From an uncultured Clostridia bacterium (GTDB lineage: Bacteria > Bacillota > Clostridia > Christensenellales > Borkfalkiaceae), in NCBI GenBank assembly GCA_947629515.1, contig CANRDY010000001.1, forward strand, positions 24,948 to 88,947: a stretch of 64,000 nucleotides of DNA, in the 5' to 3' direction. Position numbers and translations under genes: made by a program. Below are positions 1,161 to 63,521 of this stretch, in pieces (positions within the stretch are counted from its first letter, which is position 1; each line of letters begins with the position of its first letter). The notes below the pieces were generated by a model that was not told the origin of the DNA, ran no database searches, and saw nothing but the letters and a program-made list of their open reading frames with translations.

Positions 1161-1467
1161 TGATGATTATTGGGAAGTGCACCCCCTCAGTCCGCTTCGC
1201 GGACAGCTCCCCCTCACAAGTGAAGGGGCGCGAATATTTTTTCCTTATTCCCTCCCCCTTGGTAAGGGGGAGGAATTGAAGGTGGGGGTTGCTTGTACGA
1301 AGTGAGAAAAGTTCGGTTGCCCTTGCAATTACGAAGTGAGAAAGTCCGAAGAAGCAAGTTATGCAAGGAAAGCGAGGAAAACCCGAAGGAGTTTACTATA
1401 AGGTAAATGACTGAGGGTTGCCGCAGCTTGACACAGCAGAACGCCGCTTATTCGGACTTTTCGGTAG
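1161..1467 (+). repeat. composite repeat: C-tip, E, E, F; right end abuts gerC-type stop codon
   Basis: GATTATTGGGAAGTGC (C tip). CCCCCTCAGTCCGCTTCGCGGACAGCTCCCCCTCACAAGTGAAGGGG (E). TCCCTCCCCCTTGGTAAGGGGGAGGA (E). F unit 1292-1467 is near-identical to 7855-8008, 21475-21600 and 28108-28230. Confidence 0.9.
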
Positions 1468-2844: not shown

Positions 2845-4258
2845 TCTGCACCCCTCTCTTGCGCATGACCGCGGCTCTCCCGCGTTTTTGCGCGCGCTCC
2901 TTTTGTGAACCGTTACTGCTTTGTGAAGTAACGCTTCCGCTTTTTTGCGAACTTTCGCCTGTGTTTTGTGAAGTAACGCTTCCGTTTTGTGAAGCATTAC
3001 TTCCTCTTTCGATCGAGCTTTCGACTGTGTTTTGTGAAGTAGCACTTCCGCTTTTATATGAACTTTCGCCTGAATTTTGTGAAGCGTCACTTCCGCTTTC
3101 AGAAGAACTTTCGCCCGAAGCCGACCTTTTGCGGGGGGAAGGATCGCCCGACCGAGGCGTTCCCTTTAAAGTTCCGTTTGACATTCCCCTTGGCGTTCCG
3201 TTCGCCCTTTCACGGTTCAACAGCCAGCAGAGCGCGGGGGCGAGGGTGGCGAAAACGAGGGTGACTATGCCCGCCCAATCGGCGAAAAAGGCGGTGATGA
3301 GGGTGAAAAAGTGACTGCAAAGATAGAGTATCAGGGCGAGGACGGCGTTGACGGCAAGCGAATACGCATAAGGCTTTTGCACGCCGACGCACTCGCCGAA
3401 GCAGACGGCGGCGAGCTGTATGTTGAGAACGAGGGCGAAGAGCATTACCGTTTCGAGGACGTACAGAGCGAAGAGGTCTATTCTGCCTATCATATCTATC
3501 GCCGAAAAATAGAGGGCGGTTTTGGAGACGGCGAACTGCCGCGAGGGGGCTATGCCCGCATATATGCCGTAGAAGAGCGACAAGAAGCCCAGAACTGCCG
3601 CGGCGGCTATGGCGTAACTTATAACTATCTTTGCCGCGTCGCCCTTTTTATACTCGAATCTGCCCAAAAACATCAGCATATATGCCGGTTCCGCAAATCT
3701 GAACGCCGTTTTCCACGACCCGCCGAAGAGGGCGGTCGGGGGCGTTTTGAGCATGGGCAACAGGTTCGCAAAGTCTACTTCCGAAAAGGACATAAACAAA
3801 ATGAGTATTCCCGAAAAAAGGAATACGGGGAGCGAAATGTCGGCGCACCTGCCCATGTTTTCGAAGCCCTTTCCGCCCGCGTACACAAGGAAGAAAAAGA
3901 CGGGCAAAAACACGAGGAGCGGCGGCGTGGTGTCGTAAAAAATGGCGTGGACGTACATCTGCTGTTCGAAGAGCGGAACGAGCGCGGTGAACGCGAAAAA
4001 CAGCCCGAAGAGGGCGATGATAACGCGCGCCGCCGTTTTGCCGAAGGTATCCGAAAGCAGTTCGAACAGCGTTTTGTCTGTGCGCGAAGCTAAGAACGCG
4101 ACCGACCACAGCGCGACTCCCTGCACCAGAAAATCTACGCCCGCCGAAAACAGCAGGTCTCTGCCGCTGTATAAGCTGAGCTGAGTGGGGTACAGCAAAA
4201 GTTTGGAAACGATGGTATATATCGCCATTATGAAGCATATCTGCCTAACTTTCAACAT
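2837..4258 (-). CDS. spore germination protein, GerAB-type permease subunit, with Ser-rich repetitive C-terminal tail
   Basis: 473 aa with ~10 hydrophobic helices and a GerAB/spore-permease-like N-terminus. Start overlaps the A-subunit stop by 14 nt. Last ~110 aa are 15-aa repeats (SQN.GESS.KSGS..). Confidence 0.8.
   Translation of the reverse strand: MLKVRQICFIMAIYTIVSKLLLYPTQLSLYSGRDLLFSAGVDFLVQGVALWSVAFLASRTDKTLFELLSDTFGKTAARVIIALFGLFFAFTALVPLFEQQMYVHAIFYDTTPPLLVFLPVFFFLVYAGGKGFENMGRCADISLPVFLFSGILILFMSFSEVDFANLLPMLKTPPTALFGGSWKTAFRFAEPAYMLMFLGRFEYKKGDAAKIVISYAIAAAAVLGFLSLFYGIYAGIAPSRQFAVSKTALYFSAIDMIGRIDLFALYVLETVMLFALVLNIQLAAVCFGECVGVQKPYAYSLAVNAVLALILYLCSHFFTLITAFFADWAGIVTLVFATLAPALCWLLNRERANGTPRGMSNGTLKGTPRSGDPSPRKRSASGESSSESGSDASQNSGESSYKSGSATSQNTVESSIERGSNASQNGSVTSQNTGESSQKSGSVTSQSSNGSQKERAQKRGRAAVMRKRGVQNG
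2900..3120 (-). repeat. in-frame ~45-nt tandem coding repeats (about 4.5 units) forming the GerAB-type tail
   Basis: TTTGTGAAG recurs near 2919, 2964, 2985, 3029 and 3075. Translated as SQNTGESSQKSGSVT-like 15-mers. Confidence 0.8.
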
Positions 4259-5777: not shown

Positions 5778-6050
5778 TTCGCGTTTCAAAGGGCAAGCAC
5801 AGACCACCTTGGGATTATCTCGGTCAATCTGCCGTTTCCCGCAAGCGGGAACCCTCGGCAGAGCGTCGGGCTACGCCCTCGCGCGAACCCGCTTCGCGGG
5901 CTTCTCATAGCGTTCGAAATGACAGTGCCTTATGTTGCGCCGATAATATGCGCGCGGGCGTTCCAACGCCCGCGCGCGAACAGTGCCTTAATGCGCTCCG
6001 ATAATATTTAAAATAGCGGCGGGCGGCAAAATGCCGCCCGCCGCACGCAC
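5778..6050 (+). repeat. composite repeat: C (long variant), I hairpin, duplicated C-tip, I hairpin
   Basis: CGTTTCAAAGGGCAAGCACAGACCAC...GAAATGACAGTGCCTTATGTTGCGCCGATAATAT. Hairpin 5950-5977 GCGCGCGGGCG/CGCCCGCGCGC. Second copy of the C tip at 5980-6012. Hairpin 6016-6044 GCGGCGGGCGGC/GCCGCCCGCCGC. Confidence 0.85.
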
Positions 6051-6060
6051 ACACAACAAC

Positions 6061-6155
6061 TTTTTTGCGTGAGCAAAAAAATTTCACTTGCGCGTAGCGC
6101 AAATTTCACTCGCACGCAGTGCGAATTTCACTTTTGCCGCAAGGCAAAATTACCT
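6061..6155 (-). repeat. A array (inverted orientation): 4 hairpins separated by GTGAAAT; begins 2 nt after the stop of gene 6156-6833
   Basis: Plus strand reads TTTTTTGCgtgaGCAAAAAA ATTTCAC TTGCGCgtaGCGCAA ATTTCAC TCGCACgcaGTGCGA ATTTCAC TTTTGCCgcaaGGCAAAA. Confidence 0.9.
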
Positions 6156-7762: not shown

Positions 7763-8010
7763 CGAATATTATTTGGAATACACCCCCTCAGTCCGCGTTC
7801 GCGGACAGCTCCCCCTCACAAGTGAAGGGGCGCGAATGGGGAGTTTAGTGTGCTCGGTTGCCCTTGCCCGTACGAAGTGAGAAAGTTCGAAGAAGCAAGT
7901 TATGCAAGGAAAGCGAGGAAAACCCGAAGGAGTTTACATTGTAGTAAATGACTGAGGGTTGCCGCAGCTTGACACAGCAGAACGCCGCTTATTCGGGCTT
8001 TTCGGGAGTT
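7763..8010 (+). repeat. composite repeat: C-tip, E, F
   Basis: CGAATATTATTTGGAATACACCCCCTCAGTCCGCGTTCGCGGACAGCTCCCCCTCACAAGTGAAGGGG, then the F unit, near-identical to 1292-1467. Confidence 0.9.
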
Positions 8011-15004: not shown

Positions 15005-15156
15005 GCGGGGGCGCGTTTGCGCCCCCGCGGCAAGCGTTCCGCTTGAGCGGCGTGTCGCAAGCGTTTCGCTTGATCAAGTGTCTTAACAGCGTGAAAGTAA
15101 AACAGCGGAAAGGCTGTTCAACGGGAAGCGGCGGGCGGCATTTTGCCGCCCCCGCG
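15005..15156 (+). repeat. repeat modules I, B (with internal duplication), I
   Basis: GCGGGGGCGC/GCGCCCCCGC hairpin. CAAGCGTTCCGCTTGAGCGGCGTGTCGCAAGCGTTTCGCTTGATCAAGTGTCTTAACAGCG...GGCTGTTCAAC. GCGGCGGGCGGCATTTTGCCGCCCCCGC. Confidence 0.85.
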
Positions 15157-15264
15157 GTGAAATTTTTTTGCTTGCGCAAAAAAGTGAAATTCGCACTGCG
15201 TGCGAGTGAAATTTGCGGCGTTCCGCCGCAAGTGAAATTTTTTACCTACGGTAAAAAGTTATGG
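15157..15264 (+). repeat. A array: 4 x (GTGAAAT + perfect hairpin), closed by GTTATGG
   Basis: GTGAAAT TTTTTTGCttgcGCAAAAAA GTGAAAT TCGCACtgcGTGCGA GTGAAAT TTGCGGCGttcCGCCGCAA GTGAAAT TTTTTACCtacGGTAAAAA GTTATGG. Confidence 0.9.
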
Positions 15265-15862
15265 TAAACGTTTCTTTTAATCAAGTATCTTAACGGCGGA
15301 GAAATAAGCGAGCGTTTAGGCTGTTCAACTTGAACAACCCCCACCTTTAATTCCTCCCCCTTGTAATTTCTACGTCCTCATTCCCTCCCCTTTTTCAAGG
15401 GAGAGGGTAGGGTAGGGGTAGCGTGAGCACGCGGGGAGCAAAGAACAAACGGCTTTTGGTTCGCGTTTCAAAGTGCAAGCACAGACCACGGGGGGATTCT
15501 CTCACTCAATCCCGCGCCTACGGCGCGTGTCATATCCCTCGAAATGACAGTGCCTTATGTTGCTCCGATATTATTTAAAATTGCTCCCCCCTCTTAAATT
15601 CTCCCCCCTCGCAAGCGAAGGGGGAGGGTTGGGTATGGGGAAGTGCGCGAAGGAGCGCGAATATTTTTTCCTTATTCCCTCCCCCTTGGTAAGGGGGAGG
15701 AATTGAAGGTGGGGGTTGCAATTACGAAGTAAAAAAGTCCGAAGAAGCAAGCAAGACAAGGCGAACGAGCGACGACCGCAGCGAGTGTACAATGAAGTAC
15801 ACGAACAAGGCGGAGCGACGTTCAACACAGTATTGCGTAGCTTATTCGGGCTTTGCGGGAGC
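15265..15862 (+). repeat. composite repeat: degenerate B, E, C (15460-15580), E, E, F; right end abuts desulfurase stop codon
   Basis: Module sequences match copies at 56868-56955, 30611-30805, 1236-1291 and 63222-63375. Confidence 0.9.
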
Positions 15863-19023: not shown

Positions 19024-19335
19024 GGCGGGCGCGCGATTTTAATCGCGCGCCCGCGCGTTTATGCGCGGGTCTCATAGCGTTCGAAATGACAGTGCCTTAA
19101 TGTGCTTCGATATTATTTAGAAATGCTCCCCCTCAGTCCGCAAAGCGGACAGCTCCCCCTCGCGGCTTGCCGCGAGGGGGAGCGAATTAGGTTAGCTGTT
19201 AATGCGCAAAGGAGAGCGAATGGGGTCGGTTGTTAACGCTCGAGAGAAGCGGATAGTTAAGGGCTATTTTCGCGAAAAGAGCGAATAGTTAAAAGTTATT
19301 TTTGCAAAGAACGAACAGTTTAAATTTTTCCCTCT
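19024..19335 (+). repeat. repeat modules I, C 3' half, E variant, then ~5 degenerate 27-30-nt tandem units
   Basis: GGCGGGCGCGCGATTTTAATCGCGCGCCCGC. CGCGGGTCTCATAGCGTTCGAAATGACAGTGCCTTAATGTGCTTCGATATTATTT. CCCCCTCAGTCCGCAAAGCGGACAGCTCCCCCTCGCGGCTTGCCGCGAGGGGGAG. Then GAGCGAATTAGGTTAGCTGTTAAT-like units at 19178-19330. Confidence 0.8.
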
Positions 19336-21352: not shown

Positions 21353-21632
21353 AAGTGCCATAAGGTGCTCCGATAGCATTTAAAAATACTCCCCCCTCTT
21401 CAATTCTCCCCCCTCGCAAGCGAAGGGGGAGGGTTGGGTATGGGGAGTGCGCGAAAGGGGTAGTTAAATGCGCTCGGTTGCCCTTGCCAGAACGAAGTTA
21501 GAAAGTTCGAAGAAGCAAGTTATGCAAGGAAAGCGAGGAAAACCCGAAGGAGTTTACTATAAGGTAAATGACTGAGGGTTGCCGCAGCTTGACACAGCAG
21601 AACGACGCATATACGAAGTTTAACGGGAGCTA
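21353..21632 (+). repeat. composite repeat: C-tip, E, F, G; last nt shared with stop codon of 21630-22142
   Basis: AGTGCCATAAGGTGCTCCGATAGCATTTAAAAA; CTCCCCCCTCGCAAGCGAAGGGGGAGGG; F unit; GCATATACGAAGTTTAACGGGAGC-TA. Confidence 0.9.
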
Positions 21633-25385: not shown

Positions 25386-26050
25386 GCGTTCCGCTTGAGC
25401 GGCGTGTCGCCGCGGACGGGCGTCTTAACGACGGGGAAGTAAGACGGCGGAAAGGCTGTTCAACGGGAAGCGGCGGGGCGCGTTTGCGCCCCGCCGCATT
25501 TTTAAATAATAACTGTCACCCTGAGCAAGCGAAGCGCGTCGAACGGGTCTATTCCGCAGTATAGCGGAGCTTTTTATAAGGTGAATATTATTTGGAAGTG
25601 TTAACGCGTTTCAAAGTGCAAGCACAGACCACCTTGGGATTATCTCACTCAATCCCGCGCCTACGGCGCGTGTCATGTCGTTCGAAATGACAGTGCCATA
25701 ATGCGCTCCGATATTATTTGGAAGTCCTACCCCCACCCTGCCCTCCCCCTCCAAATGGAAGGGGAGGAATGGGCGATTGTTAGGTTGCTGTACGAAGTGA
25801 GAAACTTTGGAGGCGAGCGGGGATTTCTCAAAACAGCGGACACCCGCTGTTTTGCCCCGCGAGGTGAGCTTGCGCATAGTGCAAGGCGCAAGCGGTGACC
25901 GAGAACGGCGTTTTTCCTTGCGCCGTTCGAGAAGCGAGCAGAACGAGGAGCGCGAGCAGTTTGCGAGGGAGCTTACAATGACGTAAGTGACCGAGCAAAA
26001 GCGGAGCGCGACAATGTTATGCGAAGCATATACGAAGTTTAACGGTAGCC
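25386..26050 (+). repeat. composite repeat: B, I, D (25505-25570), C (25604-25724), E variant, F with nested H (25813-25933), G
   Basis: Each module matches the copies listed in the summary key. Ends 4 nt before the stop of 26055-27365. Confidence 0.9.
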
Positions 26051-27667: not shown

Positions 27668-28345
27668 ATGCGGCGGGCACTTTTCAAAGTGCCCGCCGCA
27701 AGCGTTCCGCTTAACTATGTGTCTTAACGACGTGAAAGTAAAACAGCGGAAAGGCTGTTCAACACGAGGGCTGACCCCCTCCCTTGTATTCCCTCCCCCT
27801 GTTCTTTCTTCTATTCCCTCCCCTTCCGTTTCGGAGGGGGAGGGCGAGGGTAGGGGTGGCGGGAGTGCATAAGGGGCAATGAACGTACAATTTTTCGGTT
27901 CGCGTTTCAAAGTGCAAGCACGGACCACGGGGGGATTCTCTCACTTAATCGCCCGCGCATTTATGCGCGGGTCTCATAGCGTTCGAAATGACAGTGCCTT
28001 ATGTTGCTCCGATATTATTTGAAAGTGCACCCCCTCAGTCCGCGTTCGCGGACAGCTCCCCCTCTCGGCAAGCCGTGAAGGGGAGCGAATGGCGCGGGCG
28101 GAAGTATGGTTGCCCTTGCAATTACGAAGTGAGAAAGCCCGCAAGAAGCAAGTTATGCAAGGAAAGCGAGGAAAACCCGAAGGAGCTTACAATGACGTAA
28201 GTAACTGAGGGTTGCCGCAGCTTGACACAGCTTTATGTTGAACAGCTCAAACGCTCGGCTACCCCAACGCTGTTAAGACACTTGGTCAAGCGGAACGCTT
28301 GCGACGCATATACGAAGTTTGCGGCAGTTATACGAAGTTTACGGG
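27668..28345 (+). repeat. composite repeat: I, B, E (long), C (27900-28026), E, F, inverted B, G x2; overlaps the last codons of 28339-28983
   Basis: GCGGCGGGCACTT/AAGTGCCCGCCGC; CAAGCGTTCCGCTTAAC...GGCTGTTCAAC; CCCTCCCCTTCCGTTTCGGAGGGGGAGGG; remaining modules as in the key. Confidence 0.9.
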
Positions 28346-29185: not shown

Positions 29186-30424
29186 TTACTTTATGCTCGA
29201 TTTGATTTTGAGCCTTATGTGGCGGGGCAGACCGTTGACCCACAGAGGCGAGATCTCGGCCTGTACGAGCGGGTAAATGTAGTGAACAAGCTCGGGCTTG
29301 ACGTTCGTGCCGTCCTCGGTTATCCATTCGAGGGGAACCTTCTTTTCGACGTTGGCGATGAAATGCACGTCGGCGGGTTCGGTTATGCACATATAAGGGT
29401 CGTCGGAGATCCTCTTGAGGGTTATAACTTCGCCCGTGTGCCCTTCGAACGCCGCCTTGACTGCCGCGCCGCCTACGTTGAAAGCTTCGGTCACGTCGAC
29501 GCGCGCCTGTATGTGCGAGGCGCACCTTTGAAGGGACGAAAGCTCGATAGCCCTTGTTTTAACGCCGTACTTCTCGGCGACCTTGCCCGCAAGGAAACGA
29601 GCCGTTCCCGCAAGCTGTTTGTGACCGAATGCGTCGACATAGTCCACGTGGTCAGAAAGTTCGCACACGTATCTGCCGTCGGCGACTTTAACGCCCTCGG
29701 AGACGGCTATGACGACAGACCTCTCCTCTTTGAGGAGCTTGCCGATATACGTAAGGAATTTGTCTACGTCGAATACCACTTCGGGAAGGTAGATGGCGTC
29801 GACGCCCTCGCAGTCCTCGCCCTTTGCAAGCGCGGTCGCGGCGGTGAGCCAGCCGGCGTTTCTGCCCATAACTTCTATTACCGAAACTACGGGATAGTCG
29901 TAGACGAGACCGTCGCGGATTATCTCCTTGGTGGTTGCGGCTATGTACTTTGCCGCACTGCCGTAACCGGGCGTGTGGTCGGTGAGCGCAAGGTCGTTAT
30001 CGATGGTCTTGGGAACGCCGACAAAGCGAATGGGGCTTTTTATCTGCGCGCCGTAGTCGGACAGCTTTTTGATGGTGTCCATCGAATCGTTGCCGCCTAT
30101 GTAGAAGAAAGCGTAAATTTCAAGTTCTTCCAATATGGCGAATATCTTTTGGTAAGTCTCTTCGTTACCCTCGATATCGGGGAGCTTATAACGGCAAGAG
30201 CCGAGGAACGACGACGGCGTTCTTTTAAGCAAATCCATATCAAGTTCGGTTTTAAGGCGTAAAGAGAGGTCGACAACGTCCCTGTCCAAAAGCCCTTTGA
30301 TGCCGTGAACCATGCCGTAAACTATGTCTGCGCCCCTGTCTTTGGCGGTTTTGAATACGCCGAGAAGGCTGGAGTTGATTACGGCGGTAGGTCCGCCCGA
30401 CTGTCCTACAATTACGTTTTTCAT
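29186..30424 (-). CDS. pfp: 6-phosphofructokinase family, probably pyrophosphate-dependent (Pfp type)
   Basis: 412 aa. MKNVIVGQSGGPTAVINSS start. IGGNDS in place of the ATP-type GGDGS. PKTIDNDL motif. Confidence 0.8.
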   Translation of the reverse strand: MKNVIVGQSGGPTAVINSSLLGVFKTAKDRGADIVYGMVHGIKGLLDRDVVDLSLRLKTELDMDLLKRTPSSFLGSCRYKLPDIEGNEETYQKIFAILEELEIYAFFYIGGNDSMDTIKKLSDYGAQIKSPIRFVGVPKTIDNDLALTDHTPGYGSAAKYIAATTKEIIRDGLVYDYPVVSVIEVMGRNAGWLTAATALAKGEDCEGVDAIYLPEVVFDVDKFLTYIGKLLKEERSVVIAVSEGVKVADGRYVCELSDHVDYVDAFGHKQLAGTARFLAGKVAEKYGVKTRAIELSSLQRCASHIQARVDVTEAFNVGGAAVKAAFEGHTGEVITLKRISDDPYMCITEPADVHFIANVEKKVPLEWITEDGTNVKPELVHYIYPLVQAEISPLWVNGLPRHIRLKIKSSIK

Positions 30425-30520
30425 AGAGAATCCCCCTAAATTAATCGGAAATTTTTTTGAGGCGAACTTTACCCGCCAGCTTAATTGATTATAACATATT
30501 AATGTATAAAAAGCAATATC

Positions 30521-31061
30521 ACATTGAAATTTTTTTGCGAGAATTGTGAAATTTTTGCGCGGGTGCGGGGGAAAGGGACGGGACGCTTACTCAATAGCTT
30601 ATTTTTTGATACCGTTTCAAAGTGCAAGCACGGACCACCTTGGGATTCTCTCGGTCAATCCCGCGCCTACGGCGCGTGTCATATCCCTCGAAATGACAGT
30701 GCCATAATAAGCTCCGATAATATTTGAAATGCTCCCCCCTCTTTAATTCTCCCCCCTCGCAAGCGAAGGGGGGAGGGTTGGGTATGGGGAAGTGCGCGAA
30801 GGGGGAGTTTAGGGCGTTCGGTCGTCCTTGCAATTACGAAGTGAGAAACTTTGTAGATGCGAGCAGAACGAGGAGCGCGAGCAGTTTGCGAGGAAGCGTA
30901 CACAGAAGTACGTAACCGAGCAAAAGCGGAGCGCGACACAGCTTTATGTTGAACAGCCTATCCGCCGTATTACCTCAACGCTGTTAAGACACTTGGTCAA
31001 GCGGAACGCTTGCGAAGCATATACGAAGTTTTCGGGAGTATACGAAGTTTAACGGGAGCTA
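30521..31061 (+). repeat. composite repeat: A fragment, C (30611-30729), E, F, inverted B, G x2; last nt shared with stop of 31059-32033
   Basis: Modules as in the key. Terminal sequence GCATATACGAAGTTTTCGGGAGTATACGAAGTTTAACGGGAGC-TA. Confidence 0.9.
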
Positions 31062-32033
31062 ACGGTTCACAATGTCGAACTCATCACACACCACCAGCTT
31101 AAACCTCGAAAGGGCGTCGCTTTCGAGCGCGCAACGGTGCATGTCGACCCCTCTGACAGTGCGGTCGCCGTAGGTCGTGTAGTAATAAATGCCGCGGTCG
31201 GCGTTACAACAGGACGAATAAATCGTCGTCTCGTTGCCGCCTTTCAGCCGAACACAGCCGCGCGGCTGTTCGACCGAGCAAAGTATGTGGAAAAATTGGT
31301 TCACGCTGTCGACCTCGCTGCCGTCGGAAAGCGAGTTGCTTTTGACGAACGCCGCCTTGATGAACCGCGAACGCGAGGACATATCCCCCGGCAAGCCCGC
31401 CCCTCCCAGCCCTCTGCTGTATGCCGCGATCGGAACTTCGGGCGCGAACGTGTTTTCGGGTTCGTACGGGGTCAGGCGCAGGTAATCGGCAAGGCTGAGT
31501 TCCATATCGGGGAACGGCGGGTTGTTGGTCAGCACGCCTATACGGTTCTCATAAATTTTAAGACCGTCCGCCGTCGGTTCAACGGTAATCGCGCGGGCGG
31601 CGTCGGCAATTATCCAATGCAGGGGCGTGGGCGGCAGTTCTGCGCTGAACGGGATATCCGCAAGATTTATGCGGGCAAGTTCGCTCTCCGCCTCGCTCAC
31701 GCTTGCGCATTTGCCGAGGATATAGGGTATGAACTCGTAGGGGGCGACGTTGACCGCGCCGTCGCGGACGGGGGCGTAGAACGCATTGCCGGGGAAGTTC
31801 AGACCCGCCATTGCAAGACCCTTTTCGTTGACCGCGTCGTAATAGAGCGGATAGCCGCCGCTTACATACGCCATTCCTATCATGGCGTGAAGTTGGCGGG
31901 GGGCTTCGGCACGGCTGAACTTTATGGGAAAATTGCGCGGGGTGACGCAGACCTCGACGTCGTAGGTGAACTCGAAGTCGAGATTTCTGCCGAAGTAAAA
32001 ATCGCGGGTTTTATAGGTGATGGCTGTGCACAT
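31059..32033 (-). CDS. choloylglycine hydrolase family protein (Ntn linear amide C-N hydrolase; bile-salt-hydrolase-like)
   Basis: Trimmed to MCTAITYKTRDFYFGRNLDFEF (Cys2 nucleophile after Met). 324 aa. Confidence 0.8.
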   Translation of the reverse strand: MCTAITYKTRDFYFGRNLDFEFTYDVEVCVTPRNFPIKFSRAEAPRQLHAMIGMAYVSGGYPLYYDAVNEKGLAMAGLNFPGNAFYAPVRDGAVNVAPYEFIPYILGKCASVSEAESELARINLADIPFSAELPPTPLHWIIADAARAITVEPTADGLKIYENRIGVLTNNPPFPDMELSLADYLRLTPYEPENTFAPEVPIAAYSRGLGGAGLPGDMSSRSRFIKAAFVKSNSLSDGSEVDSVNQFFHILCSVEQPRGCVRLKGGNETTIYSSCCNADRGIYYYTTYGDRTVRGVDMHRCALESDALSRFKLVVCDEFDIVNR

Positions 32034-32084
32034 ATCGTTACTCCTTTTTGTAAGTTTTTGCAACACGTGGGAGAATATTCCGCA

Positions 32085-32262
32085 ACAAGCGTTCCGTAAG
32101 CGTTCCGCTTAATCAATGGGCGGCGTGTCGCCGCGGACGGGATTCTTAACGGCGTTAAGATAGACAGCGTGTCGGCTGTTCAACAAGCGTTCCGCTTGAC
32201 CATGTGTCTTAACGGCGAGGAAGCAATACGGCGGATCGGCTGTTCAACTTAAATTTTAAGTG
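32085..32262 (+). repeat. module B, about 2.5 tandem copies
   Basis: CAAGCGTTCCGTAAGCGTTCCGCTTAATC...GGCTGTTCAAC CAAGCGTTCCGCTTGACCATGTGTCTTAACGGCG...GGCTGTTCAAC. Confidence 0.85.
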
Positions 32263-34654: not shown

Positions 34655-34714
34655 GCTGTTTTGTGTTGCGTTTACAAACTTTTTTATTTATTTTTCGAAT
34701 ACATAAAAATTCAA

Positions 34715-34802
34715 GCGTTTTAACGGCGTTGAGGTAATACGGCGGGTCGGCTGTTCAACGGGAAGCGGCGGGCACTTTGCAAGTGCCCGCCGCCGCAAGC
34801 GT
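34715..34802 (+). repeat. partial B plus I hairpin
   Basis: CAAGCGTTTTAACGGCGTTGAGGTAATACGGCGGGTCGGCTGTTCAAC; GCGGCGGGCACTTTGCAAGTGCCCGCCGC. Confidence 0.8.
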
Positions 34803-35966: not shown

Positions 35967-36631
35967 GCGCGCGGGCGTTTGAGAACGCCTGCGCGCGTAT
36001 ATTATGTTGTATTACATTATTATTTAAATATGAGTTCGCGTTTCAAAGTGCAAGCACGAACCACGGGGTCGAGTGCGGCGGTGTTCCTTACGCCGCGCGA
36101 GAAATTCTCTCGCTCAATCCCGCGCCTACGGCGCGCGTCATATCCCTCGAAATGACAGTGCCTTAATGCGCTCCGATAATATTTGAAAATGCTCCCCCCT
36201 CTTTAATTCTCCCCCCTCGCAAGCGAAGGGGGAGGGTTGGGTATGGGTAGGGCGCGAATGGGGAGTTTAGTGCGCTTGATTACCATTGCAATTACGAAGT
36301 GAGAAAGTTCGAAGGCGAGCGGGGATTTCTCAAAACAGCGGACACCCGCTGTTTTGCCCCGCGAGGTGAGCTTGCGCATAGTGCAAGGCGCAAGCGGTGA
36401 CCGAGCGCGGCGTTGCTCCTTACGCCGCGCGAGAAGCAAGCAAGACAAGGCGAACGAGCGACGACCGCAGGGAGTGTACAATGAAGTAAATGACTGAGCA
36501 AAAACGTAAGCGCGACACTGCTTTATGTTGAACAGCCTATCCGCCGTATTACTTCCCCGCTGTTAAGACACTTGGTCAAGCGGAACGCTTGCGACGCATA
36601 TACGAAGTTTACGGGCTTTGCGGTAGCTTAT
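35967..36631 (+). repeat. composite repeat: I, C (36036-36190, carrying a partial H hairpin at 36070-36103), E, F with nested H (36315-36433), inverted B, G; ends 4 nt before alaS stop
   Basis: Modules as in the key. Confidence 0.9.
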
Positions 36632-38431
36632 TTACTCTAAAATTGCTTTAATGCGCTTAACTCCCGCCGACACGTTCTCCTGCTTGACGATTTTGAATAC
36701 GCCCAGCTCGCCCGTGCTTTTGGCGTGCGGTCCGCCGCAGATCTCCCGCGAAAAATCGCCTATAGAGTAGGTCTTTACCCTTTCGCCGTACTTGCTTTCG
36801 AAAAGCCCCACAAACCCGCGCGATTTGGCTTCGTCGTAGCTCATCTCTTCCATAACGACGGGCACGTCCTTTTGTATCTGCCCGTTGACAAGCTCCTCTA
36901 CCGCCGTCACCTCTTCGGGCGTGAGCTTGCGCGAAAAGTTAAAGTCGAACCGAAGCCGCTCTTCGGTGATATTGCTGCCTTTTTGCTCTATGTCGGGCGA
37001 GAGCACTTTTTTGAGAGCGGCGTGCAAAAGGTGGGTGGCGGTGTGCAGGCGGGTGGTCTCTTCCTTGTGGTCGGCAAGCCCGCACGCAAACTTAGCCTCG
37101 CTCCCCGCGCGGCTCTTTGCCTGATGCTCGGCGAACGCGGCGGCGTAACCCTCCACGTCGACTTCAAGCCCCTTTTCCCTCGCCATTTCGCCCGTTATTT
37201 CGACGGGGAACCCGTAGGTATCGTAGAGGTGGAACGCCGTTATTCCGTCTATCTTTCCCCCTTGGGGGAGAACGGCGGCAACTTTTTCGAACTCCTTTAA
37301 GCCCTGTTGAAGGGTGCGCGAGAACTTGCCCTCTTCCTTTTCGAGTTCCTCGTATATCTTTGAGGAATTTTCGGTAAGTTCGGGGTAGACCTCGGCGTAT
37401 TTATTTATTATGGCGGAGGCGATGTCCTTTAACGAACCCTGCGCAAGCCCGATATTTCTGCCGAAGCGCACGGCGCGCCTTATTATTCTGCGAAGAATGT
37501 AGCCCTGATCGGTGTTCGAGGGCACTATCCCCTTTTTGTCGCCGAGCATAAACACGGCAGTGCGCGCGTGGTCGAGCACGACGCGGAACGCGCGGGTAAC
37601 TTCGCCCCCCTCGGAATACTTCCTGCCCGTCAGCTTTTCGATAACGGCGATCGCCTCTTCGAAGATGTCGGTCTCGTAAACGCTCTCCTTTCCGCCCAAA
37701 ATGCAGAGGGTGCGTTCAAGCCCCATGCCCGTGTCGACGTTGCGCTGTGCGAGCGGTTCGTACTTGCCCTCGGCGTTCTTGTTGTACTGCATGAACACGT
37801 CGTTCCATATTTCGAGGAACGTGCCCGCGGGGGCTTTGTCGAAGTCGAACGCCCCCAGCTTGTCGGCTTCGGCGTGGTTGCGGATTATGTGCATTTCGGT
37901 ATCGGGACCGCACGGACCGGTAGTTCCCGCGGGTCCCCACCAATTGCCCGATTTGGGCAAGAAGAATATGTGCTCTTTTTTTATACCGCATTCAAGCCAG
38001 AGCTTCGCGCTCTCCTCGTCGCGCGGGCAGTCGCCGTCGCCCGCAAAACAGGTAACGGCTATGTCGTCGGAGGGTATCCCCAGATACTTGGGCGAGGTAA
38101 GAAACTCGTAAGACCACGGTATCATCTGCTCTTTGAAGTAGTCGCCGAGCGACCAGTTGCCCAACATTTCGAAGAAAGTACAGTGCGCGCTGTCGCCCAC
38201 CTCGTCGATATCGCCCGTGCGCACGCACTTCTGCACGTCGCAAAGCCGCCTGCCCGCGGGGTGCTTTTCGCCCAAAAGATAGGGCACAAGGGGGTGCATG
38301 CCCGCGGTGGTGAACAGAACCGTGGGGTCGTTTTCGGGAATGAGCGAGGCGGACGGTATGACCGCATGCCCCTTCTCCGCAAAAAAGTCAAGATAGAGTT
38401 TGCGCAGCGTTCGGCTTGTAAAATTTTTCAT
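36632..38431 (-). CDS. alaS: alanine--tRNA ligase, short form (599 aa; ends after editing domain, no C-Ala domain)
   Basis: LRKLYLDFFAEKGHAVIPSASLIPENDPTVLFTTAGM, FFEMLGNWSLGDYFK, editing-domain HTATHLLH and CGGPH motifs. Confidence 0.9.
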   Translation of the reverse strand: MKNFTSRTLRKLYLDFFAEKGHAVIPSASLIPENDPTVLFTTAGMHPLVPYLLGEKHPAGRRLCDVQKCVRTGDIDEVGDSAHCTFFEMLGNWSLGDYFKEQMIPWSYEFLTSPKYLGIPSDDIAVTCFAGDGDCPRDEESAKLWLECGIKKEHIFFLPKSGNWWGPAGTTGPCGPDTEMHIIRNHAEADKLGAFDFDKAPAGTFLEIWNDVFMQYNKNAEGKYEPLAQRNVDTGMGLERTLCILGGKESVYETDIFEEAIAVIEKLTGRKYSEGGEVTRAFRVVLDHARTAVFMLGDKKGIVPSNTDQGYILRRIIRRAVRFGRNIGLAQGSLKDIASAIINKYAEVYPELTENSSKIYEELEKEEGKFSRTLQQGLKEFEKVAAVLPQGGKIDGITAFHLYDTYGFPVEITGEMAREKGLEVDVEGYAAAFAEHQAKSRAGSEAKFACGLADHKEETTRLHTATHLLHAALKKVLSPDIEQKGSNITEERLRFDFNFSRKLTPEEVTAVEELVNGQIQKDVPVVMEEMSYDEAKSRGFVGLFESKYGERVKTYSIGDFSREICGGPHAKSTGELGVFKIVKQENVSAGVKRIKAILE

Positions 38432-44939: not shown

Positions 44940-45216
44940 TTCGAGGGCTTTGCCCGACCCCTCGCCAAAGGCGAGACCGAAGCAAGCAAACTTCTAATAA
45001 TAACTGTCACCCTGAGCAAGCGAAGCGCGTCGAACGGGTCTATTCCGCAGCATAACGGGGTTTTTGTAAGGTGAATATTATTTGGAAGTGATAGCGCGTT
45101 TCAAAGTGCCCCGAGCAGACCACGGGGGGATTCTCTCACTCAATCCCGCGCCTTTGGCGCGTGTCATATCGTTCGAAATGACAGTGCCTTAATGTGCTCC
45201 GATATTATTTGGAAGT
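44940..45216 (+). repeat. composite repeat: D-like, D (44996-45060), C (45094-45216); C tip supplies the stop codon of 45205-45966
   Basis: AACTGTCACCCTGAGCAAGCGAAGCGCGTCGAACGGGTC; CGTTTCAAAGTGCCCCGAGCAGACCAC...CCGATATTATTTGGAAGT. Confidence 0.9.
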
Positions 45217-50045: not shown

Positions 50046-50630
50046 TGATTGCGCAAAAAAGTGAAATGAAAAAGTATGCGGCGGGCACTTTGAAAAGTGC
50101 CCGCCGCTATTTCCGATAATAACTGTCACCCTGAGCAAGCGAAGCTCGTCGAACGGGTCTATTCCGCAGTATAGCGGAGTTATTATAATAAGGCGGTTAT
50201 TATTTAAAATAGGGTACGCGTTTCAAAGAGCAAGCACGGACCACAGGGGGATTCTCTCACTCAATCGAACCCGCTATCGCGGGATTCTTATGTCGTTCGA
50301 AATGACAGTGCCATAATGTGCTCCGATATTATTTAGAAGTGCTTGAACGAAGTAAATTGCAATTACGAAGTGAGAAACTTCGGAGATGCGAGTTATGCAA
50401 GGAGCGCGCGGATTTTGCGATAGGAGCTTACAATGAAGTAAGTGTCGTACCGAAGGCGTTAGCCTTACCGAGCAAAAACGCAAGCGCGACACCGTTTTAT
50501 GTTGAACAGCCTATCCGCCGTATTACCTCAACGACGTTAAGACACTTGGTCAAGCGGAACGCTTGCGAAGCATATACGAAGTTTAACGGGAGCAAAGCGC
50601 GCGGGCGCGGCAAACGCCGCGCCCGCGCGC
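50046..50630 (+). repeat. most complete composite repeat: A fragment, I, D (50115-50180), C (50216-50340), F, inverted B, G (ends 50593), I hairpin (50597-50630)
   Basis: Modules as in the key. Fills almost the whole degV / LMW-PTP spacer. Confidence 0.9.
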
Positions 50631-51900: not shown

Positions 51901-51949
51901 GTCCACCAACGCCCCGCGACGCTTTATGCGTCGCGGGGCGTTGGTGGAC
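51901..51949 (-). terminator. 22-bp perfect hairpin following and including the tmRNA 3' end
   Basis: Minus strand GTCCACCAACGCCCCGCGACGC ataa GCGTCGCGGGGCGTTGGTGGAC. Confidence 0.7.
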
Positions 51950-52324
51950 GAGTCGGGACTTGCACCCGAGTCTTGACGGTGTCGTCGGAGCTTTCTACAT
52001 ACTTATTCCGCCTTTGGCTTGACCGCGCTTCCCGACGGACGGGGCGGGCGCGGGGCAGACCGCAAAAAATTTTGCACGGGCGCGCGCGGTCGGACGCGCG
52101 CTGTGCTATCCGTTAAGATGACGCTCTGCGCCGTCAACGGAATACGGCGCAAAACGGACCGCTTTAAGTTAAGCGGCGAGCGCGCAGCTTGCAGCTCTGT
52201 ACGAGGGGAAAGCTACGACTTTTTCGCTTTTATCTGCGTTTGAATTTAGTTTCCGTTTTTACAAAGCCGAGCCTTTGGTATGCTTTTCTCCTTCTCTTCC
52301 GCCAATCGAATCTGAAACTCGCCC
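51942..52324 (-). ncRNA. ssrA: tmRNA (ssrA), ~383 nt
   Basis: Minus strand 5' GGGCGAGUUUCAGAUUCGAUUGG... and 3' ...UCGGGUGCAAGUCCCGACUCGUCCACCA. The 7-bp acceptor stem GGGCGAG/CUCGUCC has a G3.U70 pair, followed by discriminator A and encoded CCA. Internal tag frame GCA GAU ... GCG CUC GCC GCU UAA (52237-52169) ends ...ALAA-stop. Confidence 0.8.
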
Positions 52325-56686: not shown

Positions 56687-56840
56687 GTTTTTGCTAACGC
56701 AAAAGTGAAATTTTTTTGCGTAAGCAAAAAAGTGAAATTTGCGGCGTGCCGCCGCAAGTGAAATTTGCACTTCGTGCAAGTGAAATTTTTGCCTTACGGC
56801 AAAAGTGAAATTTTTTGCGCTATCGCGCAAAAAGTTGTGG
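56683..56840 (+). repeat. A array, largest copy: 7 hairpins; first linker GTGAGTT contains the TGA stop of apgM; closed by GTTGTGG
   Basis: Stems TTTTGC, TTTTTTGC, TTGCGGCG, TTGCAC, TTTTGCC and TTTTTGCGC, each with a perfect complement. Loops taac/gtaa/tgc/ttc/ttac/tatc. GTGAAAT linkers at 56705, 56732, 56758, 56780 and 56805. Confidence 0.9.
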
Positions 56841-57200
56841 TAAAAATTATGCGGCGGGCGCCGCGGTAACCCCCCACCTTTCATTCCTCCCCCTTGTAAT
56901 TTCTCCGCCCAATATTCCCTCCCCTTTCTCAAGGGGGAGGGGAGGGTAGGGGTTTTTCTTATAATATCGGAGCATATTAAGGCACTGTCATTTCGAGGGA
57001 TATGACACGCGCCGTAGGCGCGGGATTGACCGAGATAATCCCAACGTGGTCTGTGCTTGCTCTTTGAAACCAACACCCACATTTCTGTAATAATTACTCC
57101 GCTATGCTGCGGAATAGACCCGTTCGACGCGCTTCGCTTGCTCAGGGTGACAGTTATTATTATAATGCGGCGGGCGACTTTTCAAAGTCGCCCGCCGCTT
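56841..57200. repeat. composite repeat with inverted modules: I, E, inverted C (56957-57072), inverted D (57097-57160), I hairpin
   Basis: E is in the usual orientation, but C and D are reverse-complemented relative to all other copies. GCGGCGGGCGACTT/AAGTCGCCCGCCGC hairpin at 57168-57199. Confidence 0.9.
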
Positions 57201-62888: not shown

Positions 62889-63098
62889 TAAACGTTCCGT
62901 TTAATCAAGTGTCTTAACGGCGTTGAGGGAAAACGGCGGAGCGGCTGTTCAACGCGAGCAAGCGTTCCGCTTGACCATGCGTCTTAACAGCGTTGAGGGA
63001 AAACGGCGGAACGGCTGTTCAACGCGAGCAAGCGTTCCGCTTGACCATGCGTCTTAACGGCGTTGAGGGAAAACGGCGGAGTGGCTGTTCAACGCGAG
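62889..63098 (+). repeat. module B, three tandem copies with exact 70-nt period
   Basis: Units at 62889-62958, 62959-63028 and 63029-63098. The last two differ at only 3-4 positions. Confidence 0.9.
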
Positions 63099-63521
63099 AG
63101 GTGACCCCCTCCCTTGTGTTCCCTCCCCCTGTTCTTCCTTCCATTCCCTCCCCTTCCGCCTCGGAGGGGGAGGGCGAGGGTAGGGGTAGCGGGAGTGCGC
63201 GAATGGGGAGTTTAGGGTGCTCGGTCGTCCTTGCAATTACGAAGTGAGAAAGTTCGAAGAAGCAAGCAAGACAAGGCGAACGAGCGACGACCGAAGCGAG
63301 TGTACAATGAAGTACACGAACAAGGCGGAGCGACGTTCAACACAGTATTGCGTAGCTTATTCGAGCTTTGCGGAAGCTGTACGAAGTGAGAAACTTTGTA
63401 GATGCGAGTTATGCAAGGAGCGCGCGGATTTTGCGAAAGGAGCTTACAATGACGTAAGTGACTGAGCAAAAACGCAAACGCGACACCGCAGAACGAAGCA
63501 TATACGAAGTTTGCGGCAGTA
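63099..63521 (+). repeat. composite repeat: E (long), F, second F variant, G; right end abuts clpP stop codon
   Basis: CCCTCCCCTTCCGCCTCGGAGGGGGAGGG. F at 63222-63375 matches 15712-15862. F at 63376-63490 matches 50355-50480. GCATATACGAAGTTTGCGGCAGTA. Confidence 0.9.

Follow-up and report, generated by a model that had tools for sequence, protein, structure and literature searches.

A multicopy family of covarying, rod-like hairpins next to gene 3' ends in gut Clostridia

Dispersed intergenic palindromes of several kinds have been described in bacteria. ERIC elements are imperfect palindromes of approximately 127 bp that are intergenic and multicopy, are conserved in sequence across genera and in position, and probably act as hairpins in RNA form. 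BOX elements of Streptococcus pneumoniae, a member of the Firmicutes, are intergenic and modular (boxA-B-C), with end modules that pair to form a long stem-loop and an internal module that is optional or repeated. Integron attC sites, such as the Vibrio cholerae repeats, are imperfect palindromes of 55 to 140 nucleotides (nt) that lie right after an open reading frame (ORF) in one orientation, and only the strand complementary to the coding strand folds. REPs are reported to be 20 to 40 bp long with a GTAG or CGTC tag (PMC3733652). Here we describe module F, a repeat in a 64-kb segment of the chromosome of an uncultured Clostridia bacterium (contig CANRDY010000001.1, positions 24,948 to 88,947; the whole segment is referred to below as the window). 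The window has a G+C content of approximately 53%, its genes are mostly on the minus strand, and its intergenic regions of 300 to 1,000 nt are crowded with repeat modules. A preliminary description of one F copy had proposed a selected secondary structure with the plus strand favored; that core claim stands, with the architecture revised.

Module F differs from ERIC in sequence, in phylum, and in its strong antisense bias, head-to-tail arrays, conserved tandem G.A steps, and wobble pairs that favor the strand opposite to the mRNA. From BOX it differs in that the sequences are unrelated and that F is conserved across many genera, whereas BOX occurs in one species group; to our knowledge, neither an antisense bias nor G.A platforms have been reported for BOX elements. 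Like REP, BIME, and REPIN sequences, F is a dispersed extragenic palindrome at gene 3' ends that forms mosaics with other motifs and whose stems are kept by compensatory change. A REPIN, however, is a near-symmetric doublet, whereas F is asymmetric with conserved mismatches, and F measures 110 to 150 nt against the 20 to 40 bp given for REPs (PMC3733652). Like the Gut-1-type motifs, F is defined by covariation, is found mainly in gut metagenomes, and lies in the same repeat mosaics, but it matches no Rfam 15 family and is far more abundant per genome.

A profile search (nhmmer) detected 11 copies of F in the window, all on the plus strand, and a covariance model run on both strands with filters off confirmed them. 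Beyond the window, a pattern built from the invariant center of F, which left the hairpins under test unconstrained, matched at least 120 metagenome loci, and a slightly tighter pattern matched at least 106 loci in species-representative genomes. Among the matches listed, nhmmer recovered 251 copies in 157 loci, and the genome records with F were all uncultured Clostridia from animal and human guts. The named records were Christensenellaceae or Clostridia incertae sedis, and the finer names given were Christensenella, Christensenellaceae, "Candidatus Borkfalkiaceae," "Candidatus Scatosoma," "Candidatus Gallimonas," and "Candidatus Coproplasma"; the proteins of the window are 65 to 83% identical to their orthologues in some of the F loci. 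A cmscan of the window against Rfam 15 (4,227 families), at gathering thresholds and at E <= 1 with permissive filters, gave no match on any F copy. Two scans of viral contigs and blastn against phages and plasmids likewise detected no homologue, and we found no description of the element in the literature. From these comparisons, F is a copy of an undescribed family of predicted rod-like hairpins of 110 to 150 nt in gut Clostridia, whose named members belong to the Christensenellales or to Clostridia incertae sedis.

F is predicted to fold into a single long hairpin in which six helices (P0 to P5) are stacked, with a core of approximately 110 nt, or 130 to 150 nt when the basal stem is included. 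A structure of 32 pairs was curated by hand (from base to tip, P0, P1, P2, P3, P4, P4', a two-pair step, and P5) and scored on A2, a sequence-only MAFFT alignment of 150 distinct copies. In this alignment, 92.4% of the cells pair, versus 77.0% with shuffled partners and 22 to 42% when the partner is slid by 1 to 3 columns; 25 of the 32 pairs vary on both sides, the covariation score is 0.374 versus 0.134 in shuffles, and 0 of 500 shuffles reached any of these measures. RNAalifold on A2 returned 17 pairs, 14 of them with compensatory changes, and the nested long-range pairs were recovered by a mutual-information scan of all column pairs in a sequence-only profile alignment. A model-fitted alignment gave 93.9% pairing cells and a covariation score of 0.450, and the number of pairs changing on both sides was 24 to 25 over the two alignments. 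Covariation thus holds on a large alignment, which indicates that the secondary structure of F is maintained by selection, as had been proposed; the family, its fold, and the covariation can be taken as established.

The compensatory changes are concrete. In P5, the tip of the long hairpin, three pairs read U-A in 95 and C-G in 50 of the 150 members, U-A in 81, G-C in 60, and A-U in 6, and G.U in 100 and G-C in 44, and two of the pairs carry compensatory changes in 50 to 66 sequences. The P5 variants found were TTTAC/GTAAA, CTTAC/GTAAG, TGTAC/GTACA, CGTAC/GTACG, and CATAC/GTATG. P5 corresponds to hairpin 1 of the preliminary description, whose stems TTTAC/GTAAA (1392-1407 and 7933-7948), GTGTAC/GTACAC (15785-15802), CGTAC/GTACG (30897-30912), and CTTAC/GTAAG (28186-28201) are all present, as is every sequence quoted there, to within 1 nt; the covariation claimed for this hairpin is real and far above chance. 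P4' exists in over a dozen compensatory versions, including AACCC/GGGTT, TTTTGC/GCAAAA, TTTGCC/GGCAAA, TTTCCC/GGGAAA, CTTGCC/GGCAAG, and TTCCCC/GGGGAA, and P0, the basal helix, differs in sequence between copies. Between the helices lie conserved purine-purine oppositions in the form of tandem G.A/A.G steps, in which the second pair alternates between A.G, C.A, and A.A; the four tandem sites are kept in 77 to 147 of the 150 copies, the G.A mismatches themselves are retained in 137 to 147, and P1 holds an invariant one. Substitutions in F track base pairs and not codons. The short minus-strand ORFs that run across it (30591-30939) are not genes, because copies differ by 1- and 2-nt indels that do not preserve the reading frame, and copy lengths modulo 3 are spread over 65, 43, and 42 of the 150 copies. 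Known motifs were compared by eye. A K-turn was rejected for a bulge geometry unlike that of a simple K-turn, a loop E was rejected for a would-be noncanonical pair that covaries as Watson-Crick, and CsrA sites were rejected with the GGA motifs lying outside hairpin loops; a mini-ORF in the P5 loop (AAGGAG-N6-ATG-AAG-TAA) is not conserved.

Other parts of the proposed architecture were not supported by the larger alignment. The sequences of a second hairpin (50366-50382 and 30836-30854) are present, but it does not covary as claimed: its 5' half (ACGAAG) is invariant, the changes in its 3' half (CTTCG, CTTTGT, GTTCG, GTCCG, and GCCCG) are one-sided, and some of them break the stem. By eye, this 3' half varies in the window copies together with the 3' end of F (GTCCGA/TCGGAC, GTTCGA/TCGGGC, GTTCGA/TCGAGC, and CTTTGT/ACGAAG), and it is therefore assigned to the 5' strand of P0; in some copies both candidate partners read ACGAAG and the two pairings are indistinguishable there. 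A stem said to enclose the hairpins changes on one side only (GCAAG/GCGAG), its CTTGC partner is absent outside the window genome, and in the fold of the family the partner of GCRAG is the 3' arm (P1/P2). The arrangement of two small hairpins inside an enclosing stem is thus not supported; hairpin 2 and the enclosing stem both clash with the covarying helices P0 to P2.

The copy described here (Table 1) had been delimited as 30818-30945, a span that takes in the 5' two-thirds of the element and leaves out the 3' part. This copy is complete and not truncated: a 68-nt reverse copy of the repeat module D2 separates GACACAG from TTGCGAAGCATATACGAAG, after which the 3' arm resumes and, in the minimum-energy fold of 30833-31040, closes P0 to P2 across the insert. 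The plus strand of this stretch folds to -64.7 kcal/mol (z = -3.2; 0 of 200 shuffles as good) and the minus strand to -54.6 kcal/mol (z = -1.55). The 3' tail of this copy (TATACGAAGTTTTCGGGAG) is followed, right before the stop codon of the neighboring hydrolase gene, by a partial second copy (TATACGAAGTTTAACGGGAG; both within 31020-31058), and similar tails of the form TTT-N-CGG-N-AG follow most F copies of the window.

Across the family, the RNA of the plus strand has the more stable predicted fold in 147 of 165 copies, with a mean of -38.5 kcal/mol versus -32.0 kcal/mol for the RNA of the minus strand, a difference of 6.5 kcal/mol. The pair that is G.U in 100 copies and G-C in 44 is the closing pair of P5; two other pairs are G.U in 21 and 10 copies with no A.C. 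The basal stems are variable in sequence and therefore sample many loci; there, single mismatches with Watson-Crick neighbors on both sides are G.T 23 times and A.C 4 times (p = 3e-4 by a strand-symmetric method), and folding with G.U pairs disallowed gives 32 versus 4. A deamination bias as expected on an exposed coding strand would presumably shift these counts in the opposite direction. Unpaired positions on the plus strand are 47% A and 32% G, and paired positions are balanced in composition. We put the odds that the plus strand, antisense to the neighboring genes, is the strand that folds at about two to one, which gives moderate support to the earlier proposal on this point. The third-position GC skew of the window (estimated bias, +0.016) does not fix the replication strand, and orientation relative to replication is not separable here from orientation relative to transcription.

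The placement of F is as regular as its fold. In 154 of 175 cases (approximately 88%), the next gene downstream within 500 nt is on the opposite strand, with a median distance of 13 nt between its stop codon and the end of the profile match. Of the copies between codirectional genes, 118 are antisense and 6 are sense. In convergent regions, the same end of F comes within 23 nt of the antisense gene's stop codon in 11 regions, versus 2 to 3 in which the other end lies at the sense stop. The neighbors have housekeeping roles, and positions are conserved: F comes after queA in 12 genomes and also adjoins lysS, prfB, clpP, secA, smc, alaS, and pfk. Where it adjoins queA, the final codons of that gene make up the 3' strand of the basal stem, and the 5' strand matches each genome's own codons; in one F subfamily, the GGAGG of the next gene is part of the stem. 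AAAA and TTTT frame 34 to 36% of the copies at fixed symmetric offsets, with 17 runs of at least 5 on each side. Orientation and stop-codon placement are thus established features of the family.

The folded strand is most likely the purine-rich plus strand, antisense to the genes, and the working molecule is therefore thought to be an RNA whose transcription runs in the direction of the adjacent gene's 3' end. The reading that we favor, with a probability of roughly 0.4 and hence tentatively, is that F is a plus-strand structured RNA, antisense to the gene end, which would present its G.A platforms to a protein. The RNA nature of the molecule, as against single-stranded DNA, its transcription, its binding to a protein, and its role are inferred. 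The hairpin base is next to, or overlaps with, the stop codon of the adjacent gene, and the conserved G.A platforms and A-rich loops would form the protein-binding surface. Because of its position, F may be a cis-acting element for the convergent gene at its 3' end, where it might stop antisense transcription or pair with complementary 3' untranslated region (UTR) or intercistronic RNA.

In the window genome, transcription of F may start at module C, whose promoter-like core lies approximately 130 nt upstream of the element discussed here. The core (ATGACA, 17 nt, GATAWT) is exact in 10 window copies, with invariant hexamers and a spacer of variable sequence, matches a sigma-70 promoter at 10 of 12 positions, which makes it a predicted promoter, and lies 55 to 250 nt upstream of six or seven of the window F copies. 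Its ATGACA is the 3' half of a TGTCAT...ATGACA inverted repeat of which the 5' half is not kept, and the three versions of the middle hairpin of module C that had been reported to be swapped among copies are all present as claimed. The 28-base pattern of the core had 0 matches in 185,579 species-representative genomes; module C is therefore lineage specific, the window species having no close representative in that set.

Several observations weigh against a plus-strand antisense RNA. Orientation and stop-codon placement are what would be expected of an element acting on the sense mRNA. In approximately one-quarter of the copies, F fills nearly all of the space from the stop codon to the next ribosome-binding site (RBS) or start, the next start lying within approximately 25 nt of the other F end, and there is therefore no room in these copies for an antisense promoter outside coding sequence. 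Elsewhere in the family, promoter-like sites occur upstream of F (36 in 189 upstream regions) with no positional peak, and for this reason we claim no dedicated F promoter outside the window genome. The wobble signal, too, is weaker than the preliminary description had implied. It holds in the variable basal stems and at one dominant core position, a pair that is G.U in 102 of 139 copies, and from these the plus-strand bias stems; the rest of the conserved core is balanced (G.U 52 versus A.C 61). The basal-stem cases are partly related by descent, with approximately 15 versus 3 being independent. When the core is folded without G.U pairs, its 1x1 mismatches are mostly the conserved G.A, with A.C (29) exceeding G.T (3), so that the core gives no clean wobble signal. 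DNA hairpins likewise tolerate G.T and G.A, and the sequence features considered here therefore do not separate RNA from single-stranded DNA.

A possible, though distinctly less probable, alternative is that the sense mRNA is the functional molecule and that F, read as its reverse complement, forms a hairpin in the 3' UTR or between cistrons right after the stop codon, similar to REP/BIME, ERIC, or BOX elements. Such a hairpin could protect the upstream message against 3' exonucleases, provide an RNase III site, terminate transcription, or couple the stop codon to the next RBS. It would account directly for the excess of antisense over sense copies between codirectional genes, the median of 13 nt to the stop codon, the same F end abutting the antisense stop in convergent regions, and the basal stems that often take in the last codons and stop codon of the adjacent gene, as at queA in 12 genomes, and, in one subfamily, the GGAGG of the next gene. 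Orthologous positions are kept after queA, alaS, and clpP, the AAAA/TTTT frames of approximately one-third of the copies resemble those of bidirectional terminators, and the minus-strand RNA still folds to approximately -32 kcal/mol. However, the mRNA strand would have 4 G.U pairs in the basal stems versus 23 to 32 on the other strand, and on it the conserved G.A mismatches would turn into C.U/U.C and the G.U that most copies have at the P5 base into A.C. The mRNA-strand fold is also the weaker one in 147 of 165 copies and at the locus described here is no better than shuffles (z = -1.55). There is no intrinsic terminator (a stem followed by a T run) on either strand at 30400-31100, and the A/T runs of the family are symmetric and thus directionless; F as a canonical terminator was rejected on these grounds.

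Comparison of the copies establishes that F multiplies and, by the pattern of chimeras, swaps segments within a genome. Within the window, the copies at 1313, 7854, and 21474 are 88 to 93% identical over 158 nt, and the 68-nt D2 insert occupies an identical point in 4 of the 11 copies (28231-28298, 30942-31009, 36521-36588, and 50495-50562). Chimeras of different subtypes, in which the strands of P4 and P5 no longer match, are found in the window (36429-36607) and in the related locus L001 (2265-2461). The phosphofructokinase protein of the L001 strain is identical to that of the window, so that the repeats exchange segments faster than genes diverge. Other genomes hold head-to-tail arrays of 2 to 7 copies with spacers of 10 to 25 nt (L173 has 2.7 repeats of a 235-nt unit, 98% identical), and genomes differ in the F subtype present at one and the same orthologous site, e.g., between clpP and clpX.

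These dynamics raise a further possibility, somewhat less probable again, that F is a nonautonomous mobile or recombining DNA whose purine-rich strand folds as single-stranded DNA and is recognized by a Y1 transposase or tyrosine recombinase (compare REP/REPIN-RAYT and attC), with covariation reflecting the needs of the enzyme. Near-identical copies within one genome, head-to-tail arrays, chimeras, a single orientation shared within each region, different subtypes at the clpP-clpX site, and a 68-nt module inserted at exactly the same point in four copies would all fit. So would the position of the folded strand, antisense to the preceding ORF at its stop codon, which recalls the attC bottom strand. 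This alternative fits the copy dynamics and an attC-like geometry, without any tested hallmark of the known systems. The Pfam scan of 26 window ORFs identified housekeeping or sporulation genes with no match to a transposase or integrase family or to RAYT (Y1 transposase), the window being 64 kb of the genome, and F is absent from the phages, plasmids, and viral contigs searched. GTAG is at the 5' junction in 7 of 150 copies, GGAG, TTAG, and AGAG being commoner, and this, with the size of the element, rules out F as a REP. Both attC cores (RYYYAAC...GTTRRRY) are present in 1 of 188 copies with either strand taken as top, the neighbors of F are housekeeping genes at orthologous positions and not cassettes, and the arrays have no ORF between copies; F as attC was rejected on the basis of the cores, the neighbors, and the lack of an integrase in the scanned ORFs. 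By the criteria applied to MITEs, ERIC and Correia types included, the arms are inverted repeats by construction, the flanks are complementary and not direct repeats, and no clear target-site duplication is seen, a possible TA...TA being present in 49 of 150 copies. The basal stems are locus specific and include coding sequence, which a transposed unit would not carry, and F is conserved across genomes whose shared proteins are only 65 to 83% identical.

That F has no selected function, its arms being kept complementary by quasi-palindrome template switching and gene conversion and its covariation being a few subfamilies counted repeatedly, is very improbable: the same stem variants do recur in many genomes, so that cells of the alignment are not independent events, chimeras do point to frequent exchange, and template switching could spread a palindrome into the flanks and so give locus-specific basal stems, but P4' has over a dozen distinct compensatory versions, the loops are conserved and strongly strand asymmetric, F persists across the divergent genomes just mentioned, and a purely mutational origin does not easily explain why more than 90% of copies keep the mismatches, because correction of a palindrome would erase them.

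Coordinates of the F copies and of the features around them are compiled in Table 1.

Table 1 Features of the window and F arrays of other loci (L numbers)
Feature	Position	Strand	Remark
Complete F element described here	30833..31040	+	5' and 3' ends pair across nested insert; covariance model match 30851-30958
F 5' arm, 5' strands of P0 to P4	30851..30896	+	Purine-rich, conserved GA steps; alignment A2 and pair counts
P5 (hairpin 1, CGTAC-ACAGAA-GTACG)	30897..30912	+	Tip of long hairpin
F 3' arm, first part, 3' strands of P4 and P3	30913..30941	+	Ends in GACACAG
Nested 68-nt insert	30942..31009	+	Reverse copy of 70-nt module D2, within F internal loop
F 3' arm, second part (TTGCGAAGCATATACGAAG), 3' strands of P2, P1, and P0	31010..31028	+	Pairs with 30849-30862 in minimum-energy fold
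Hairpin 2 of the preliminary description	30836..30854	+	3' half (CTTTGT) is 5' strand of helix P0
Module C promoter-like core (ATGACA-17 nt-GATAAT)	30693..30721	+	~130 nt upstream of F, aimed at F
Choloylglycine-hydrolase-family gene	31059..32066	-	Stop codon ~20 nt past F 3' end; converges on F
Phosphofructokinase gene	29186..30424	-	Start faces repeat-filled intergenic region
F copy	1346..1453	+	Uninterrupted; covariance model, 101 bits
F copy	7887..7994	+	Uninterrupted; covariance model, 102 bits
F copy	15739..15847	+	Uninterrupted; covariance model, 92 bits
F copy	21507..21614	+	Uninterrupted; covariance model, 100 bits
F copy	25926..26033	+	Uninterrupted; other upstream hairpin replaces hairpin 2; covariance model, 95 bits
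F copy	28140..28317	+	68-nt D2 insert; covariance model
F copy	36429..36607	+	D2 insert; chimeric, P4 and P5 partly broken; covariance model
F copy	50383..50581	+	D2 insert and extra 22-nt insert after P5; covariance model
F copy	63254..63362	+	First of head-to-tail pair between clpX-like and clpP-like genes; covariance model
F copy	63396..63505	+	Second of pair; ends 17 nt from stop codon of clpP-like gene (-); covariance model, 115 bits
Module C core copies	5914-5945, 15539-15570, 19081-19112, 25682-25713, 27983-28014, 30688-30719, 36147-36178, 45173-45204, 50297-50328	+	
Module C core copy	56965-56996	-	
D2 copies elsewhere	15059-15128, 15266-15335, 25401-25470, 27700-27769, 32185-32254, 34696-34765		
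C-run/G-run hairpins	1247-1286, 15380-15419, 15596-15635, 15674-15713, 21406-21445, 27818-27857, 36209-36248, 56914-56953, 63143-63182		
F arrays	L173 2051-2829; L217 620-1066; L079 3986-4373 and 5485-5788; L075 606-1009; L006 5822-6186; L199 3003-3286		

Module D2 occurs in the window in both orientations, including three perfect tandem copies at 62890-63099, and its copies border the Gut-1 RNA at 15155 as well. Hairpins of the C-run/G-run type (e.g., CTCCCCCC-loop-GGGGGGAG), a family in which both loops and stems differ, usually lie between modules C and F. Gut-1 RNA (RF01706) has three copies in the window, at 15155-15243 (+), 56730-56816 (+), and 6054-6133 (-), two of them above the gathering score and one just below it (47.7 versus 50 bits); each copy consists of short hairpins in series separated by GTGAAAT. 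In the 2010 paper that defined it, Gut-1 was "human gut only" and in no sequenced organism (PMC2864571); here it is in a Clostridia chromosome, amid the same repeat mosaics as F. Among the F-abutted genes, the alanyl-tRNA synthetase ORF at 36632-38431 (-) encodes only 599 amino acids, with F next to its stop codon and nothing beyond the tRNA_SAD domain. Its counterpart in locus L167, which F likewise abuts, encodes a similarly short 617 amino acids, and that of L211 is homologous and falls in the same cluster; judging from these sequences, the usual C-terminal region of the enzyme seems to be absent in this group. The window also holds a transfer-messenger RNA gene at 51942-52324 (-), with a full-length Rfam match of 106.7 bits, and a cluster of short repeats in direct orientation (TGTTTTGTGAAGTAACGCTTCC and its variants, at spacings of 21 and 45 nt) at 2917-3105, at the 5' end of or just upstream of a GerAC-like spore germination gene.

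Extended to the whole family, the reading of F as a plus-strand RNA leads to a broader and more doubtful proposal, namely, that F would represent a new class of multicopy structured noncoding RNA in gut Clostridia, antisense to the 3' ends of housekeeping genes or to operon junctions, whose tandem sheared G.A pairs would build a rod-like scaffold that recruits a lineage-specific protein and control 3' end formation, read-through, or decay of the convergent transcript. If true, bacteria would have an additional, so far undescribed layer of regulation at gene ends.

Christensenellales-type bacteria are common in the gut microbiota, and their noncoding repertoire is essentially uncharted. F is abundant in them (11 copies in 64 kb) and is present in many metagenome-assembled genomes of Clostridia from animal and human guts, with covariation support on a par with what accepted RNA families show. 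It can be annotated with the covariance model from this work, and the element accounts for intergenic assembly breaks in the genomes that bear it. The fold looks optimized on the strand antisense to the genes, whereas the placement is tied to the stop codons of the sense genes. To resolve this conflict would be to learn whether bacterial gene ends make use of dedicated antisense structured RNAs or of hairpins in single-stranded DNA.

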